A program made the translations under genes and the position numbers. From a virus, in the IMG/VR virus record IMGVR_UViG_3300025528_000003: 42,559 bases of DNA. One strand, 5' to 3'. Positions 14,211 to 41,279 of this stretch are shown here, one piece after another. Numbering within the stretch: position 1 is the first letter of the stretch; each line of letters opens with the position of its first letter. The notes below the pieces were generated by a model. That model did no database searches. It had not been told where the DNA came from and saw only the letters and a program-made list of their open reading frames with translations.

Positions 14211-14467
14211 ACAGCAGATTTGAATCACTTCTGGAAGAAGCTGCGGATTGGGCCGACCGGCGTGGCGTCGATTACTCCATCTTCCGGGACGGCGGCGACT
14301 GGACCATACAAATCCGCCTTAGCGACACTAACGGCACATTCCTGGAGTTCTTCACGCTGCCGGAACCAGGGAAGGTCGGAAGCCTCTCGCGCAGACTGGA
14401 TATGCTTTGCGCGGAGGCTCGTAAGAAGCGGATCAACGGCGGCAAGCCAGCCTATCAACGAGCCTGA
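14207..14467 (+). CDS. Hypothetical protein (86 aa)
   Basis: GTGA-coupled ORF. Confidence 0.5.
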   Translation: MNSRFESLLEEAADWADRRGVDYSIFRDGGDWTIQIRLSDTNGTFLEFFTLPEPGKVGSLSRRLDMLCAEARKKRINGGKPAYQRA

Positions 14468-14491
14468 TATCAACCAAGCGGCGGGGTTACA

Positions 14492-15043
14492 ATGAAAGCA
14501 AGGACAAAGGGGCAGAAGCGGCGCGGCAGGCCGAGAAAGGCAGGGCCGCGAGAGCCAAGCGGGCGCATCAGCCGGTCAGGCATCGATCATGGCCCGGCGG
14601 ACATAGTAGCCCTTGATGCCCGCCGCCGTATGCTTGGACTGCCGGAAAGCAAGCTGCGCGATCAAAGGGCGGGAAGCTACATTGGCTACCTGAATATCCT
14701 TGGCAAAAGCGATGGGCTCTCCGACGATCAATACAAGGCGGCACAAGAGTACCTGGCACTGCGCAATGCGTATCTTCGAGCGATAAAGGCACCTGGGCGG
14801 CTGATCGATGACGAGGCAATGCCATCACCAGAGATCACCAAAGAATACGAGGAATGGGTACAGGCGACGAAAGAAGCTTATGAAAACTGCCGCCGCGCCA
14901 TCCAGGAAGCCCAGAACGAACATCGGTGCGAAAACCTTTGGGCGGCCTTGGATCTGATCATCATTCGCGATGAGCGCCTGCCGCACATGATTGGGGCTAC
15001 GCGGATTCTGTGTAATGCGCTGGCAAGGTTCTTTCGGATTTAA
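14492..15043 (+). CDS. Hypothetical basic protein; positional candidate for a late-gene regulator/antiterminator
   Basis: 183-aa ORF immediately upstream of a strong promoter and a short terminated transcript. No Q-family motif recognised. Confidence 0.55.
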   Translation: MKARTKGQKRRGRPRKAGPREPSGRISRSGIDHGPADIVALDARRRMLGLPESKLRDQRAGSYIGYLNILGKSDGLSDDQYKAAQEYLALRNAYLRAIKAPGRLIDDEAMPSPEITKEYEEWVQATKEAYENCRRAIQEAQNEHRCENLWAALDLIIIRDERLPHMIGATRILCNALARFFRI

Positions 15044-15049
15044 AGGGGC

Positions 15050-15078
15050 TTGACATTTGCCGGAAAATGTATTTTATG
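15050..15078 (+). promoter_or_regulatory. Strong promoter-like element (TTGACA, then a T/A-rich -10 region)
   Basis: TTGACA at 15050-55. TTTTAT/TTTATG follows at 16-17 nt spacing. Confidence 0.5.
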
Positions 15079-15120
15079 ACGAATGATTATGATAGGCGAT
15101 TTGCGCCTAAGCGGGGGTAG

Positions 15121-15149
15121 GGCCAGTCACTTCGGTGCGCTGGCCTTTT
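15121..15149 (+). terminator. Intrinsic terminator with UUCG tetraloop
   Basis: GGCCAG-t-CAC UUCG GUG-cg-CUGGCC followed by UUUU. It lies about 40-65 nt downstream of the predicted start site, after a first hairpin at 15094-15108. Confidence 0.6.
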
Positions 15150-15230
15150 CCATTTCACAGTTAGCCCGGCACTACGCAACAGCCGAAGAAAGCATCTTGT
15201 CATTCAGGCGTAGGTGTGCGGGCTACCCGA

Positions 15231-15254
15231 GTTCACTGCCAAGCGGCAGTGAAC
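15231..15254. repeat. Perfect 10-bp-stem hairpin GTTCACTGCC-AAGC-GGCAGTGAAC resembling a type I-F CRISPR repeat (single copy)
   Basis: Read directly. The minus strand reads GTTCACTGCCGCTTGGCAG, versus the I-F consensus GTTCACTGCCGTATAGGCAG. Confidence 0.8.
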
Positions 15255-15363
15255 CAATCGAGGCTTCGGACGCTGAGCCAGCATAGCAAATCAGCGTCCA
15301 TTCCAGTCACGAGCCGCCCGCCGCGTTAGAGTTACCGGAAGCTTGCCAGCAGGACGGCGCCCC

Positions 15364-15549
15364 TTATTCAGGCCAGGGACGGATACCACGGGCAAGCGCG
15401 GCGCATGCTAGGGCGACATAGCGCGGTATCTTCGCGCCGTCCCGGGAATAGCGCGCGTCCATGTTCTTCGAGAGGCCTAGCCTCCGGCACGCTTCCGCCC
15501 CCGAGAGACCGAGGGCGGATTTCCATTGGCGATAGTCGGCGGGAGTCAT
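15364..15549 (-). CDS. Small HTH protein (61 aa), Aca-like/antitoxin-like
   Basis: ADYRQWKSALGLSGAEACRRLGLSKNMDARYSRDGAKIP is an XRE/Aca2-like N-terminal pattern. ATGA-coupled to the upstream gene. Confidence 0.65.
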   Translation of the reverse strand: MTPADYRQWKSALGLSGAEACRRLGLSKNMDARYSRDGAKIPRYVALACAALARGIRPWPE

Positions 15550-15746
15550 GCGCGAACCGCGTGGTTCTCGATGACGCTGGCGATGTTCTCGACCGTGGTC
15601 GGGAAGAAGTCGCCGTCCTCGACGTTGCGGAGTTCGTAGCCGTCCGGCAGGCAACCCTCGACGGAACCAACATCCCACTGACGGTCGGTATCGACATAGG
15701 TCTCGATGAACTTGCGGGCGGCGGCGGTGGCTTCGGTGCGGTTCAT
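15546..15746 (-). CDS. Small acidic protein (66 aa), unknown function
   Basis: AAGGGAGAA RBS. 13 Asp/Glu versus 6 Arg/Lys. Confidence 0.6.
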   Translation of the reverse strand: MNRTEATAAARKFIETYVDTDRQWDVGSVEGCLPDGYELRNVEDGDFFPTTVENIASVIENHAVRA

Positions 15747-15772
15747 TTCAGTTCTCCCTTGCTTGATAGCGC

Positions 15773-16033
15773 TTATGCCGCACCCCGTCCTGCCGCCGCA
15801 GAGCAATATACCGCGTCCAGAGCGTTGGCCGCCTCGCGGTTCGCGTACTCAACGACATCGGCGAAGGTGAGGTTGTTCTGGGGATCGCGCCCATAATCAC
15901 GGTGGACGTACCAGCCGCCACCGCTGCGCTGGCGACCGAAGTTCAGGGTGATCTCCGCGTTGGGGTGAGCCTTGTTGAAGGCTGCGATCTGGGCGTCGAG
16001 CTGCTTTGCGGTGCGAGCGGTGAAGTAGGTCAT
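15773..16033 (-). CDS. Small protein (86 aa), unknown function
   Basis: AAGGGAGAA RBS. First gene after the leftward promoter. Confidence 0.6.
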   Translation of the reverse strand: MTYFTARTAKQLDAQIAAFNKAHPNAEITLNFGRQRSGGGWYVHRDYGRDPQNNLTFADVVEYANREAANALDAVYCSAAAGRGAA

Positions 16034-16060
16034 TTCGTTTCTCCCTTGCTTGATGATGCA

Positions 16061-16089
16061 AACTTATCATCCCATAAATGGGAATGCAA
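16061..16089 (-). promoter_or_regulatory. Leftward promoter TTGCAT-N17-TAAGTT with a 6-2-6 inverted repeat TCCCAT-AA-ATGGGA (16070-83) in the spacer and an A8 tract upstream
   Basis: Read directly on the minus strand. Confidence 0.55.
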
Positions 16090-16213
16090 GAGGGGTTCTG
16101 TCTTTTTTTTGAGAAAATTTCGGGCTAAGAGGGGTGGGGGATGATCAAGGCGGCAAAAGGAAAATCGCTCGACGCGCCACGTCCGCGCCCGTCCTGACCT
16201 ATTCGGAGCATCC

Positions 16214-16411
16214 ATGACCCGAGAGTATTTCATCAAGCGCCGGTCTGCCGACATCGACCGCGATCCTGATGGTGAACACTACTTGGCTCGTACGGTCTAC
16301 GAAGAGTACGAGCTAATCGATACGGGCGTGGTTGATCACAACGGCGACAAGATCATGGCTCGGCGCAAGATGGAGCCGATTGGTTTCGTGCGCTTCAAGG
16401 ATCGTTCATGA
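16214..16411 (+). CDS. Hypothetical protein (65 aa)
   Basis: ORF coupled to the next gene. Confidence 0.55.
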   Translation: MTREYFIKRRSADIDRDPDGEHYLARTVYEEYELIDTGVVDHNGDKIMARRKMEPIGFVRFKDRS

Positions 16412-16614
16412 CCGACCCGCGCCGCATAGACGAGATCAAAACGCACCCCATCCATATTTGGGAAACTCCTTGCTCCTGTCATTGCTCCAAGGAGCAAGCG
16501 GCATTCTGTCCCGTCATAAGGGCATGCCGCTACCCGGAGCATCCTAACCACGAGAGGGCAAAGGCCATCATGGCTCAAGCGATGAGCTTCCCTCATGCGT
16601 CGCAACGCGCATAG
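16408..16614 (+). CDS. Hypothetical Cys/His-rich protein (68 aa)
   Basis: Coupled ORF with CSCHC...C...C. Confidence 0.5.
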   Translation: MTDPRRIDEIKTHPIHIWETPCSCHCSKEQAAFCPVIRACRYPEHPNHERAKAIMAQAMSFPHASQRA

Positions 16615-16619
16615 ACGAG

Positions 16620-16760
16620 ATGGCAGAAGCGCGATTTTATGTCTATGAGCTCATAGACCCAAGAGACGGGAAGGCTTTCTACATCGGCAAGGGCCAGGGG
16701 CGGCGCATCTATGGACATGAAGCCGAGGCGGCTCAATATCCCGATCATCCTCATCACTAA
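16620..16760 (+). pseudogene. Truncated GIY-YIG endonuclease remnant (46 codons)
   Basis: Own translation: MAEARFYVYELIDPRDGKAFYIGKGQGRRIYGHEAEAAQYPDHPHH. This is the GIY...YIG N-terminal motif only. Below the ORF-track cutoff. Confidence 0.6.
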
Positions 16761-16789
16761 AGGCAAATCAAACCGATAGGTGAATTTAA

Positions 16790-17053
16790 ATGGCTGGCCG
16801 TCCACCTAAAGAGCGGTCCTTTGCCAACATGCTTAACATCGCCATCCGTGAAGCAAGCGAAAAGGGTGGCACAAAGCTGCGCGAAGTGGCCGATGCTCTG
16901 ATTCAGAAAGCTGTTGCTGGCGATGTTCAGGCAATCAAGGAAATTGCTGATCGTCTCGATGGAAAGGTCCCGCAGCAGCTTAATCACGCCGACAATGAGG
17001 GGGAGGGACCCGTCAAGATGATCGTGACTGGTGTCCCTCGCGAAGGCGATTGA
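16790..17053 (+). CDS. Putative terminase small subunit (positional)
   Basis: 87-aa ORF (MAGRPPKE...) whose stop overlaps the terminase large subunit start (TTGA). Confidence 0.45.
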   Translation: MAGRPPKERSFANMLNIAIREASEKGGTKLREVADALIQKAVAGDVQAIKEIADRLDGKVPQQLNHADNEGEGPVKMIVTGVPREGD

Positions 17054-18354
17054 CTGTCATTGATCTAGGTTACCGCGCTCGGGAACAGTTCGTTCCATTT
17101 CACAGGCGGAAAGAGCGCTGGGCCTGCATTGTCGCTCACCGTCGCGCTGGTAAGACGGTTGCCTGCGTGATGGATTTGATTGATGCGGCTCTCCGCTGTG
17201 ATAAGACAAATCCTCGCTTTGCGTACATTGCGCCTTTTTACACGCAAGCGAAGGACATCGCATGGAGCTACGTCAAAGAGTATGGAGCACGCATTCCTGG
17301 AGCGCAGGTCAACGAGAGTGAGCTTCGCCTTGACTTGCCCAATGGCGGCAGAGTGAGGCTCTACGGCGCTGAGAATTACGACAGGCTGCGCGGTCTCTAT
17401 TTCGATGGCGTCGTGCTTGATGAGTACGCCGACATGGATCCGCGTGTTTGGCCGCAAGTTGTTCGTCCTGCGCTCTCTGATCGTCAAGGCTGGGCGACAT
17501 TCATTGGGACGCCAAAGGGCCGGAATGATTTTTATCGCATCTGGGCTGGCGATCCTGAGACCGCATGGCCTGGCGCGATTCATTCGGATGATTGGTTCGC
17601 CCTCATGCTCAAGGCATCCGAGACCGGCCTTGTCCCAGAGCAAGAGCTTGCCGACGCACGTTCGATGCTCTCCGAAGATGAGTACGAGCAGGAATACGAG
17701 TGTTCTTTCGAGGCAGCCATCAAGGGCGCATTTTTTGCTGAGCAGCTAAAGCGTGCCCGTGAGGAGGGCCGAATTGGCCGAGTGCCGATTGAGCGAGGCT
17801 TGCCTGTCTGGACGGCTTGGGATCTTGGTGTCTCTGATAGCACCGCAATCTGGTTCGGGCAGACGGCGGGACAGGAAGAGCGGATTATCGACTATTACGA
17901 GGCATCAGGTGTGGGCCTCGACCATTATGCGACAGTGCTGCGGGAAAAGGGCTATCTCTACGGGCAGCATTTTTTCCCGCATGACGTGGCCGTGAAATCG
18001 CTCTCGACAGGCGTTTCGCGAGTAGAGACGCTGCGAGGCTTGGGCATTGCTGCGACTATTGTCCCGCGCCATAGCGTGATGGACGGCATCAATGCGGCCC
18101 AGCGGTACATCGACCGGTGCTGGTTCGATGAAGAGCGCTGCAGGCGTGGCCTTGAGGCTCTGACACAGTATCGGCGCGAGTATGACGAAAAGCTGAAGAC
18201 GTTCAAGAAGTCTCCGCTTCACGACTGGACGTCACACGGCGCTGATGCATTTCGCATGAGGGCGGCAATGGCTGACGTCAATAGGCCGCGTCCTGCTTCT
18301 CGTGGCCGATACAGGGGCGCGACGACGAGTTCATCAAGCTGGCTTGCTGCATGA
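17050..18354 (+). CDS. terL: Terminase large subunit
   Basis: Walker A-like AHRRAGKT, Walker B-like VVLDEYAD and a C-terminal nuclease-like region. Followed by the portal gene. Confidence 0.9.
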   Translation: MTVIDLGYRAREQFVPFHRRKERWACIVAHRRAGKTVACVMDLIDAALRCDKTNPRFAYIAPFYTQAKDIAWSYVKEYGARIPGAQVNESELRLDLPNGGRVRLYGAENYDRLRGLYFDGVVLDEYADMDPRVWPQVVRPALSDRQGWATFIGTPKGRNDFYRIWAGDPETAWPGAIHSDDWFALMLKASETGLVPEQELADARSMLSEDEYEQEYECSFEAAIKGAFFAEQLKRAREEGRIGRVPIERGLPVWTAWDLGVSDSTAIWFGQTAGQEERIIDYYEASGVGLDHYATVLREKGYLYGQHFFPHDVAVKSLSTGVSRVETLRGLGIAATIVPRHSVMDGINAAQRYIDRCWFDEERCRRGLEALTQYRREYDEKLKTFKKSPLHDWTSHGADAFRMRAAMADVNRPRPASRGRYRGATTSSSSWLAA

Positions 18355-40089: not shown

Positions 40090-40120
40090 GTGGCTCAAAC
40101 CCGCAGAAAACCGGGATTCG

Positions 40121-40173
40121 GCACCGGCCTTCTAAGCCGATGGTCGCAGGTTCGAATCCTGCCGGGGTCGCCA
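40121..40173 (+). other. attP core: 3' ~50 nt of a tRNA-Arg(UCU)-like gene (anticodon arm to CCA); not a complete tRNA
   Basis: Own folding. T-arm GCAGG-TTCGAAT-CCTGC, acceptor 3' strand CGGGGTC-G-CCA, anticodon loop CTTCTAA. There is no matching 5' acceptor strand or D-arm upstream. Confidence 0.8.
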
Positions 40174-40244: not shown

Positions 40245-41279
40245 TCATGGATGGTTCCTTTCCATCCGCAGAATCACGGCGTCACTGTCCTCCTGATCGG
40301 GGGACAGATAATGCCTTTCCAGGATCGTCGTGACCTCGCCAATTGAGTGCCCTGAGATGAGGGCAATGCGCTTGATGTCATTGCCTTCCTTCCACCGCTC
40401 GGTGATGAAAGTCCCCCTGAGATCGTGGAAGGTAACATCGGTAATACCGAGCTTATCGCACTCTTTGCCCCATGATGTCTTGAATCCGTCCTTCGTCCAT
40501 GGACGACCCCGCGAATTGAGGCAGATGCGCAATGTGTCCTTTGGCATTGCATCAAGCATCGCCTTCAGTCGCGAATGGACGCGCACCTTCAGCTTCTTGC
40601 CGGTCTTGGACTGGTGGAAGCGAAGATAGGTGCCGTCATAATCCCTCCACGAAAGGCCCAGAATGTCACTCTGCCGCTGGCCGGTCGCTATGGCGATCTC
40701 GAATGGCAGAAGAAGGTGACTGGGCGCATTCTCCCTGAATCTCCTGATCAGGTCCGGCGTCCATATGAAGTCGCGCCGAGACCCCTTGTAGAGCCGGGTA
40801 ATCCCGTGACAGGGGTTCTTGTCGATCAGTTCGCAGGCTATGCCGTAGGAAAAGAGCTTGGACAGCGAGAAAAGCAGCTTGTCGGCCTTGCGCGGGTTCT
40901 GGGCAAAGCTTCTGTGCCACTTCCTTATATCGTCCTTCATCCCCTTCTCTTGCGTGAGGTGAAGGGGAAGGCGGGGCCATTTCTTCCTGATGAGCCGGAA
41001 GGCGTAGAGATGGTCCCTGCGCGTCGTTTCCGCCAGAGCGAGCCAGTCGGGGTTGGGTTCGTGGTCCGTCCCGGTGAAGCGATCTATCAGGCTATCAAGC
41101 GTCAGTGTCGGCTCTCTTGCCGCAAGCTCCCGGAGACGGGCCACCTCCATGACAAATTCCGGCGTGTGCGGCTTTGCCTTGATCTTCGGGCCGCCGCGCC
41201 ATGCGTAATAGTGATGGCGATAGGTGCCGTCCGCCAGCTTGCGCTTGACGTGATGCACGCCCTTAACGCGCACGAGCAT
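40245..41279 (-). CDS. int: Tyrosine recombinase / phage integrase
   Basis: 344 aa. C-terminal catalytic contexts ATGQRQSDIL, HDLRGTF and GHS...ERHY. Adjacent to the tRNA-fragment attP. Confidence 0.95.
   Translation of the reverse strand: MLVRVKGVHHVKRKLADGTYRHHYYAWRGGPKIKAKPHTPEFVMEVARLRELAAREPTLTLDSLIDRFTGTDHEPNPDWLALAETTRRDHLYAFRLIRKKWPRLPLHLTQEKGMKDDIRKWHRSFAQNPRKADKLLFSLSKLFSYGIACELIDKNPCHGITRLYKGSRRDFIWTPDLIRRFRENAPSHLLLPFEIAIATGQRQSDILGLSWRDYDGTYLRFHQSKTGKKLKVRVHSRLKAMLDAMPKDTLRICLNSRGRPWTKDGFKTSWGKECDKLGITDVTFHDLRGTFITERWKEGNDIKRIALISGHSIGEVTTILERHYLSPDQEDSDAVILRMERNHP

Follow-up and report, generated by a model that had tools for sequence, protein, structure and literature searches.

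A probable autoregulated accessory operon, built like an acr–aca locus, in a temperate alphaproteobacterial phage

The IMG/VR virus record IMGVR_UViG_3300025528_000003 is a metagenomic phage contig of 42,559 nucleotides (about 42.5 kb; hereafter, the window), which carries a short operon of three small genes: orfA, orfB and a gene encoding a 61-residue helix-turn-helix (HTH) protein. We propose that this locus is probably an accessory operon that regulates itself and has the layout of an anti-CRISPR/anti-CRISPR-associated (acr–aca) locus, in a temperate phage of an alphaproteobacterium. That it belongs to a type of accessory operon with fast turnover, repressed by its own HTH protein, is highly probable. 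By analogy with acr–aca loci, an anti-defence role of the cargo genes orfA and orfB is slightly favoured. All coordinates of the operon refer to the minus strand of the window, and its features are as follows.

16110–16103, minus strand: A8 tract read from the sequence, 13 nucleotides (nt) upstream of the −35 hexamer; a possible UP-like element
16089–16084, minus strand: −35 hexamer TTGCAT, matching TTGACA at three of six positions, in a register common to 20 related loci
16083–16067, minus strand: 17-nt spacer TCCCATTTATGGGATGA, the first 14 nt of which are a perfect palindrome
16070–16083, in the spacer between −35 and −10: candidate operator TCCCATTTATGGGA, a perfect palindrome TCCCAT-TT-ATGGGA (TCCCA-TTTA-TGGGA)
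16066–16061, minus strand: −10 hexamer TAAGTT, matching TATAAT at three of six positions, with the TAnnnT register kept in related loci
16030–16054, minus strand: leader copy 1, ATCAAGCAAGGGAGAAACGAAATGA, with the probable transcript start, the Shine–Dalgarno sequence GGGAGAA and the orfA start codon; it fits the family consensus
16033–15773, minus strand: orfA, cargo gene 1, 86 residues
15743–15767, minus strand: leader copy 2, ATCAAGCAAGGGAGAACTGAAATGA, in front of orfB
15746–15546, minus strand: orfB, cargo gene 2, acidic, 66 residues
15549–15364, minus strand: gene of the 61-residue XRE-type HTH protein (Aca-like), the start codon of which overlaps the orfB stop codon (ATGA)
15231–15254: hairpin between convergent genes, with a perfect 10-bp stem and a loop of 4 nt, some 110 nt beyond the HTH stop codon

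An earlier note, made from the letters of the window, had described this arrangement. The A8 tract, TTGCAT-N17-TAAGTT and the palindrome were all found where it had placed them, and the perfect 6-2-6 inverted repeat inside the promoter spacer was confirmed at 16070–16083. A lone 6-2-6 palindrome is expected in a 17-nt spacer by chance with an estimated probability of roughly 0.005. Reading the window also confirmed the two small open reading frames (ORFs) of 86 and 66 residues, the latter with 13 acidic and six basic residues (net charge −7), and the HTH gene coupled by ATGA at the end of the operon. Two public assemblies of this phage, independent of each other, also have all three ORFs as gene calls. 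Downstream of the −10 hexamer, the leader reads ATCAAGCAAGGGAGAAACGAA on the minus strand of the window; the near-identical leaders reported before both small ORFs prove to be a 25-nt direct repeat, identical at 23 of 25 positions, with a 16-nt exact core.

The same layout recurs in relatives. In 77 related loci (designated by L numbers), the region upstream of the HTH gene was walked using Shine–Dalgarno sites as anchors, a heuristic by which some cargo ORFs were possibly miscalled; the order of promoter, leader, cargo and HTH gene seen in the window was found also in 28 of them. These loci have a −35 hexamer TTGAC(A/G) or TTGCAT, a palindrome in the spacer, a −10 hexamer TAnnnT, a leader, one to three cargo ORFs of 54–131 residues and a terminal HTH gene, which is mostly joined through an ATGA or GTGA overlap. 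The family consensus of the leader is (T)CATC(A/G)AAAC.GGAGAACGCA(G/A)ATGACC. In every one of the longer phage contigs inspected, a short operon ends with the HTH homologue and runs against the genes around it, with replication genes (DnaA_C, Prim-Pol) on one flank and terminase/portal genes on the other; the small ORFs before the HTH gene differ and encode 69-67-98, 57, 76 and 65 residues. The description of the locus as self-contained, on the opposite strand and acr–aca-like with a terminal HTH gene is, therefore, strongly supported: the HTH gene is kept, the genes upstream of it are hypervariable and the core-promoter palindrome is conserved.

One locus of this kind can be noted in a cultured organism, Methylobacterium frigidaeris JCM 32048 (L109, 2855–3285). 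It consists of TTGACG, the palindrome GTCACTGATCAGTGAC, a leader, a 62-residue acidic cargo protein and an HTH gene with a GTGA overlap, and it is located directly downstream of a serine recombinase gene.

A strong palindrome is present in the 26-nt spacer segment of 14 of the 21 non-redundant loci, whereas 2000 shuffled controls gave 1.7 such loci on average and never more than 7. A second copy is often found in relatives about 25–35 bp upstream. When the palindromes were aligned on their centres, positions ±3/4 were mostly CA/TG, and all four complementary pairs occurred at position ±5 (C:G in eight loci, G:C in six, T:A in six and A:T in five); these counts are biased upward because the centres were picked for maximal symmetry, which does not affect the correspondence between residue and base. 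The base at ±5 varies together with the residues that begin the predicted recognition helix. Thus, a helix starting with A-P-N-T occurs with TCGCA..TGCGA (L007, L011, L012, L040, L042 and L099), one starting with S-R-N-M-P with GCACA..TGTGC (L016, L018, L019, L024 and the Brucella locus L094), and one starting with S-K-N with TCCCA..TGGGA (the window and L048, otherwise only distant relatives). Of the indirect evidence for binding of the palindrome by the HTH protein, this co-variation of half-site and recognition helix is the best available, and autorepression of its own promoter seems to be well supported in this indirect way.

The HTH protein of the window is similar to phrog_14076, annotated as a transcriptional regulator (E-value 1.7e-6). 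Its homologues form 20 protein clusters, all of about 57–73 residues; HTH_31 was matched in 18 of the 20 family members, and the family consensus is MTPADF..W...LG.SRAEACRRLGIAPNT.TAY..GR..IPRYVALACAALARG..PWP. Scans with the family alignment revealed 80 viral and 22 genome loci with a related HTH gene. The named genome records are mostly those of Alphaproteobacteria, including Brucella, Mesorhizobium, Rhizobium, Devosia, Caulobacter, Methylobacterium, Xanthobacter and Roseibium. The best sequence match of the family profile in the PDB was the C-terminal HTH of 2auw (E-value 4.7e-7), the NE0471 protein of Nitrosomonas europaea, in which residues 95–138 match the family, including the IPR..LAC motif; however, NE0471 has 170 residues and two domains, whereas the regulator of the window is a stand-alone protein of 61 residues. 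NCBIfam gave the family only generic XRE-like matches, such as MqsA and PezA, and a weak Pfam match of the window protein to zf_DPOE_2 was discarded as noise. Pfam Aca2_YdiL (DUF1870) was matched by one of the 20 family members (E-value 0.03); Aca2 proteins have an HTH and a C-terminal dimerisation domain and are of about 125–136 residues, and the window protein, with only 61, does not belong to them. The profile search of the PDB at E-values of up to 10 returned Aca2 and Aca3 as the only Aca entries, Aca1 being absent. The HTH protein could not be assigned to Aca1, Aca2 or Aca3, the named families compared, and judging from these comparisons it represents a conserved, previously unnamed, Aca-like family.

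The relatives of the HTH protein in cultured phages are distant (at most 43% identity) and stand in different contexts; distant relatives in Ralstonia phages (GP4 group) and in a Haematospirillum plasmid were not used as evidence because of their contexts. In another distant, homogeneous subgroup (L065, L078 and L087; about 37% identity), the HTH gene follows a gene encoding a 188-residue Sigma70_r4 protein and ends a longer array of small genes. This context is unlike that of the core family and was not used as evidence either.

Cargo turnover is extreme in comparison with this conservation. The 34 cargo proteins of the 28 loci fell into 26 BLAST clusters, and related cargo was found in only four of the 55 pairs of loci with 60–93% identical HTH proteins. 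L017 and L020 (HTH 93% identical) encode unrelated cargo, as do L016 and L092 (92%). None of 56 cargo proteins matched a Pfam family with an annotated function. The 25 non-redundant core cargo proteins gave no PHROG or PADLOC match and a sole Pfam match, DUF1771, in one protein, and the Pfam matches of 30 further cargo ORFs were limited to DUF families and weak noise; the Sigma70_r4 match among the latter belongs to the 188-residue protein of the distant subgroup, which was added for comparison. By charge, ten of 29 core cargo proteins are acidic and ten are basic.

This diversity bears on the toxin–antitoxin module that the earlier note had offered as an alternative, that is, a type II system in reverse order, in which small toxins would be encoded upstream and the HTH protein downstream would be both antitoxin and autorepressor. 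The operon does look autoregulated and its genes do overlap; the MqsA-family antitoxin model was weakly matched by six of the 20 HTH family members (best E-value 7e-6), one member matched PezA (E-value 0.0064), and the family profile matched the PezA structure 2p5t (E-value 0.0065). The MqsA and PezA matches can be explained by the XRE HTH that these proteins share. A bare HTH of 61 residues has no room for a toxin-neutralising domain, the association of one conserved HTH with more than 25 unrelated upstream proteins is incompatible with cognate binding, no toxin family was detected in the cargo by Pfam and PADLOC scans, and orfB persists without the HTH gene in L004 and L005. The toxin–antitoxin alternative is, therefore, disfavoured, and we consider it extremely improbable.

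The leaders indicate how the cargo may be exchanged. In the multi-gene arrays of the window, L007, L037 and L099, each cargo gene is preceded by its own near-identical leader copy, and the arrays of L007, L041 and L099 comprise up to three or four unrelated genes. In L006, the whole promoter–leader unit (GTTAGTTATATGTAGGTCATAGAGT.AA.CAAGGGAGAAATTGAAATGA) is repeated at 380–450 and 1320–1390 before two different small genes, one of which is an orfA homologue; the spacer has a direct repeat GTTAGT..GTTAGT in place of the palindrome. In L004 (3520–3760) and L005 (1660–1900), the orfB homologue keeps a window-type leader (…CAGCAAGGGAGAACTGAAATGACC) and is followed by ATGACTCCAGCCGACTATCGCCAATGTGA, which corresponds to the first eight HTH codons (MTPADYRQC*), and then by an intrinsic terminator. 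This HTH vestige implies that the junction of orfB and the HTH gene is ancestral there and that the regulator is dispensable; in this phage, the regulator appears to have been deleted and the cargo kept. Homologues of orfA and orfB were found apart from each other in other phages (L003, L004 and L006). The leader-per-gene patterns point to cargo being gained and lost as cassettes, for which the leader and the HTH gene may provide homology arms.

A wider interpretation, possible and put forward here only tentatively, is that the locus is one case of an integrase-free gene-cassette system in alphaproteobacterial phages, which shuffles and stacks unrelated anti-defence genes behind one autorepressed promoter. 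In such a system, each cargo gene may move with its own leader of about 25 nt, (T)CATCAAAC.GGAGAACGCA.ATGAC, portable homology arms may be formed by the conserved promoter/leader and by the HTH gene at its conserved 5′ end, and orfA and orfB may be the founders of new inhibitor families directed against Hyphomicrobiales defence systems.

The arrays and the truncated loci also bear on the possibility that the operon is an antirepressor switch between lysis and lysogeny, similar to immI of P22, the cargo of which would inactivate CI-type repressors of the phage's own or competing prophages, with the HTH protein keeping the cargo off in the lysogen. Small antirepressors under dedicated repressors are known from P22 (Arc/Mnt-Ant) and the Gifsy phages, and the operon is transcriptionally autonomous, belongs to a temperate phage (see below) and lies away from the main immunity region, which is located at about 8.1–9.3 kb. 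Against it stand the arrays of several unrelated cargo genes, the loss of the HTH gene with retention of orfB in L004 and L005, and the unrelated cargo behind HTH proteins that are 92–93% identical, the last being unexpected in a core decision circuit. Moreover, no similarity to the Ant, Arc or Mnt families was found. We regard this explanation as very unlikely, and an accessory operon of the acr–aca type remains the preferred one.

The two cargo proteins of the window are not assignable to any known structural or regulatory family, given that neither a sequence nor a fold match was found for them. Only five relatives of orfA were found among 5.8 billion clustered proteins, and it matched no Pfam, PHROG or PADLOC family. 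Its AlphaFold2 (AF2) model, with a predicted local distance difference test (pLDDT) score of 83.5, has an alpha-beta3-alpha fold, and a Foldseek search of the PDB revealed no neighbour (best E-value 1.1). For orfB, a word-indexed search gave five close relatives and an exhaustive HMMER search gave 67 matches at E-values of at most 1e-3, four of which are repeat matches in long proteins, the rest being small proteins, mostly of 56–122 residues. By this measure, orfB defines a putative family of about 60 small proteins, with the motifs RQW, LP.GW and DF.P.T in its consensus. A protein of 5298 residues (P0032) matched positions 21–46 of the orfB profile 14 times (summed E-value 3.6e-23), and was rejected as a spurious relative: the match is to a motif, 'GLPEGF(T/I)V', recurring in a surface-protein repeat of about 190 residues. 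The AF2 model of orfB, built from the family alignment, has a pLDDT of 98.3 and a predicted template modelling score (pTM) of 0.86; Foldseek found no structural neighbour for it (best E-value 3.4 in the PDB and 1.1 in BFVD). Searches of the PDB with sequence profiles of the two proteins gave nothing below an E-value of 0.16, and the weak Pfam matches of orfB to Lumazine_bd_2 (E-value 0.15) and of orfA to YL1_C (E-value 0.14) were discarded as noise. No match to either protein was found by tblastn among GenBank phages, and a scan of IMG/VR, made with orfB only, gave no relatives. Ten proteins encoded next to orfA or orfB homologues in L003, L004 and L114 belong to no Pfam family. The view of the earlier note that the small ORFs lack recognisable domains was thus borne out by sequence searches as well as by AF2 and Foldseek.

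The phage itself is evidently temperate, since a tyrosine integrase gene (40245–41279, minus strand) adjoins a tRNA gene (40097–40170; Rfam 31.9 bits); this is likely to be the attachment-site region. A Dam methyltransferase is also encoded in the window. To the left of the operon are genes encoding a DnaA_C-domain protein and a conserved phage protein (phrog_15385), and to its right those of a P22-type portal protein and a large terminase; both the replication and the packaging blocks run rightward, opposite to the operon. A blastn search with positions 14400–17100 gave no match at the DNA level among GenBank phages.

The temperate setting can also be read in another way: the operon may be a moron expressed from the prophage for the benefit of the lysogen, its cargo being defence or superinfection-exclusion factors, or modifiers of host physiology, rather than inhibitors of host immunity, and being kept low and steady by the HTH autorepressor. 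A promoter of its own on the opposite strand would insulate such an operon from lytic transcription, negative autoregulation fits constant low expression, and the cargo of two relatives is a short hydrophobic peptide. None of the 25 core cargo proteins matches a PADLOC defence model, no transmembrane-like segment occurs in any of the 29 core ones, and domainless proteins of 54–131 residues are small for autonomous defence effectors. Moreover, extreme turnover of cargo beside a conserved small HTH protein is the reported signature of acr–aca loci (PMC7391736, PMC9410906). We therefore consider the lysogen-benefit explanation unlikely. Superinfection exclusion, another alternative of the earlier note, is in its membrane form disfavoured for the window operon because its cargo has no transmembrane segment.

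The hydrophobic peptide mentioned above, MSYETLSLLLQALEVAIALAGLIATLLK, is encoded in prophages between the palindrome promoter and the HTH gene in Brucella sp. IR073 (L094, 3720–3925) and in a Breoghania metagenome-assembled genome (L106). It could be a membrane-active peptide.

The closest parallels to the window locus are found among acr–aca operons. Acr-associated Aca proteins are mostly of 60–65 residues with a single HTH, and the inverted repeat IR1 is always located in the core promoter, a second inverted repeat being frequent (PMC9410906). The regulators of these loci are more conserved than the Acr proteins (PMC9410906, PMC7391736). Aca-linked RNA motifs between adjacent genes of an operon and Aca control of non-Acr anti-defence genes have also been reported (PMC13551039). 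Like the operons of Aca1–Aca14 (PMC9410906, PMC13551039), the window locus has small unannotated genes before the gene of a single-domain HTH protein of about 60 residues in one short operon, an IR1-like palindrome in the core promoter, with a second, upstream copy in many relatives of the window, a regulator that is conserved much better than the cargo, a location in a temperate phage or prophage, and a regulatory or leader sequence repeated between the genes of the operon (cf. PMC13551039). It differs in that the cargo of its family includes no known Acr and in that the hosts of the family are Alphaproteobacteria (Hyphomicrobiales and others), which are unmentioned in the 2022 survey (PMC9410906).

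Comparison with individual Aca proteins indicated similarities as well as differences. Aca1 of the Pseudomonas phage JBD30 (7c0g) is, like the window protein, a small HTH protein with the order of helix, HTH and C-terminal helix; its motif P-x-Y-x-V/A-L-x-C-L resembles IPRYVALACAAL of the window HTH, and it represses from palindromes overlapping the promoter. However, Aca1 is extended by 17 residues at its N-terminus and has an insertion ahead of the last helix, its operator sequences are unlike that of the window, and the similarity is limited to the HTH core. In addition, the window leader of about 25 nt is too short for the hairpins present in the 5′ untranslated regions of Aca1 and Aca2. 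Aca14 is a ribbon-helix-helix protein (PMC13551039), and its fold class thus differs from that of the window protein. Another alphaproteobacterial phage, Rhodobacter phage RcapNL, encodes AcrIC9 in a directon of three genes with a small acidic Acr (79 residues, pI about 4) and an HTH gene (PMC7391736). In contrast to the window, the HTH gene of this directon is the second gene, and its product was called a distant Aca3 homologue (PMC7391736). RcapNL was not retrieved by searches with the window HTH family. A crystal structure of AcrIC9 has been published (PMC10478522); nothing significant of any kind was retrieved from the PDB with orfA or orfB.

Several observations weigh against the proposed reading. 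In neither sequence nor fold does any cargo protein, of the window or among the 56 of its relatives, resemble a known Acr or anti-defence protein, and the assignment of function therefore rests on guilt by architecture. The cargo of L094 and L106 is a hydrophobic peptide of 30–40 residues, so that not all cargo need be soluble inhibitors. 'Solo' HTH genes, which directly follow a palindrome promoter without any cargo, are present in L095 (Brucella endophytica) and L104 (Rhizobium lusitanum); they have a counterpart in solo aca genes (PMC9410906). The similarity of the HTH family to named Aca proteins is low: the family profile matched Aca3 (PDB 9vt3) with an E-value of 0.11 over 25 residues and Aca2 (PDB 7ezy) with an E-value of 0.3, neither of them significant, and the match to Aca1, for which the sequence compared by hhalign was verified against PDB 7c0g, was only marginal (probability 74%, P 2.8e-5, 34 columns, HTH core only). 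The operon of the window has one palindrome, and no second operator copy was found in the window even with two mismatches allowed, whereas many relatives have a second, upstream copy. Finally, the window hexamers fit the E. coli consensus TTGACA/TATAAT at only six of 12 positions, and a sigma-70 scan called no promoter at the operon. The promoter was nevertheless called because its register is conserved with that of 20 related loci having TTGAC(A/G) or TTGCAT and TAnnnT. The hexamers and spacing given in the earlier note stand, but their fit to the consensus is weaker than the note implied. Its proposal of a candidate anti-defence operon holds likewise in part: the acr–aca-like architecture was found, and a likeness of the cargo to known Acr or anti-defence proteins, or a place for the HTH protein in Aca1–Aca3, was not.

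For HTH binding and repression, expression timing, anti-defence activity and the mechanism of recombination, we infer the following course of events. Host RNA polymerase would start at the sigma-70-type promoter, independently of the flanking rightward replication and packaging units, and the short leader of about 25 nt would allow efficient translation of the small soluble orfA and orfB proteins. The HTH protein would be made by translational coupling through the ATGA overlap and, presumably as a dimer, would bind TCCCA-N4-TGGGA in the spacer between −35 and −10. This would shut the operon off, so that cargo would be made in a pulse or be kept at a steady low level. The cargo proteins would most likely bind and inhibit host (immunity) proteins. 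The cargo position may be a hot spot, where each cargo gene moves with its own leader copy, and swapping could use the conserved promoter/leader and HTH gene flanking it as homology arms.

Two further features of the surroundings can be noted. The gene-free gap 15044–15363 (320 nt), which separates the HTH operon from a convergent gene encoding 183 residues, holds the hairpin at 15231–15254 and a second, 9-bp hairpin, and has a fold z-score of −2.1. The hairpin at 15231–15254 is a candidate bidirectional terminator; this call is only tentative because the hairpin has no T-run and was missed by the terminator scan. Rfam gave no RNA family in the operon region, including the gap. On the other side of the operon, a 46-residue ORF (16620–16760), just upstream of a small terminase-like gene (DUF5681), matches only the N-terminal 40 of the 255 positions of phrog_5356 (E-value 1.1e-11) and weakly resembles the GIY-YIG domain; it looks like the remnant of a truncated homing endonuclease.

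For Alphaproteobacteria (rhizobia, Brucella/Ochrobactrum, Methylobacterium and Caulobacter, for example), the known anti-CRISPR or anti-defence proteins are few, and AcrIC9 of the Rhodobacter phage is the only validated alphaproteobacterial example found in the literature searched (PMC7391736). The conserved Aca-like marker, together with the signature of promoter, operator and leader, provides a direct guilt-by-association handle, with which over 50 unrelated candidate proteins have already been singled out, orfA and orfB included; the locus of Methylobacterium frigidaeris JCM 32048 is a possible experimental model. The family also offers a natural series of repressor–operator pairs, the specificity of which appears to switch with single residue and base swaps. 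If the gene-cassette interpretation is true, P, R or K at helix position 28, pairing with G, A or C at operator position 5, would make a tunable orthogonal repressor–operator set. If the cargo is not anti-defence, the locus would still be a clean accessory hot spot with fast turnover, in which the mechanism of gene exchange can be studied.

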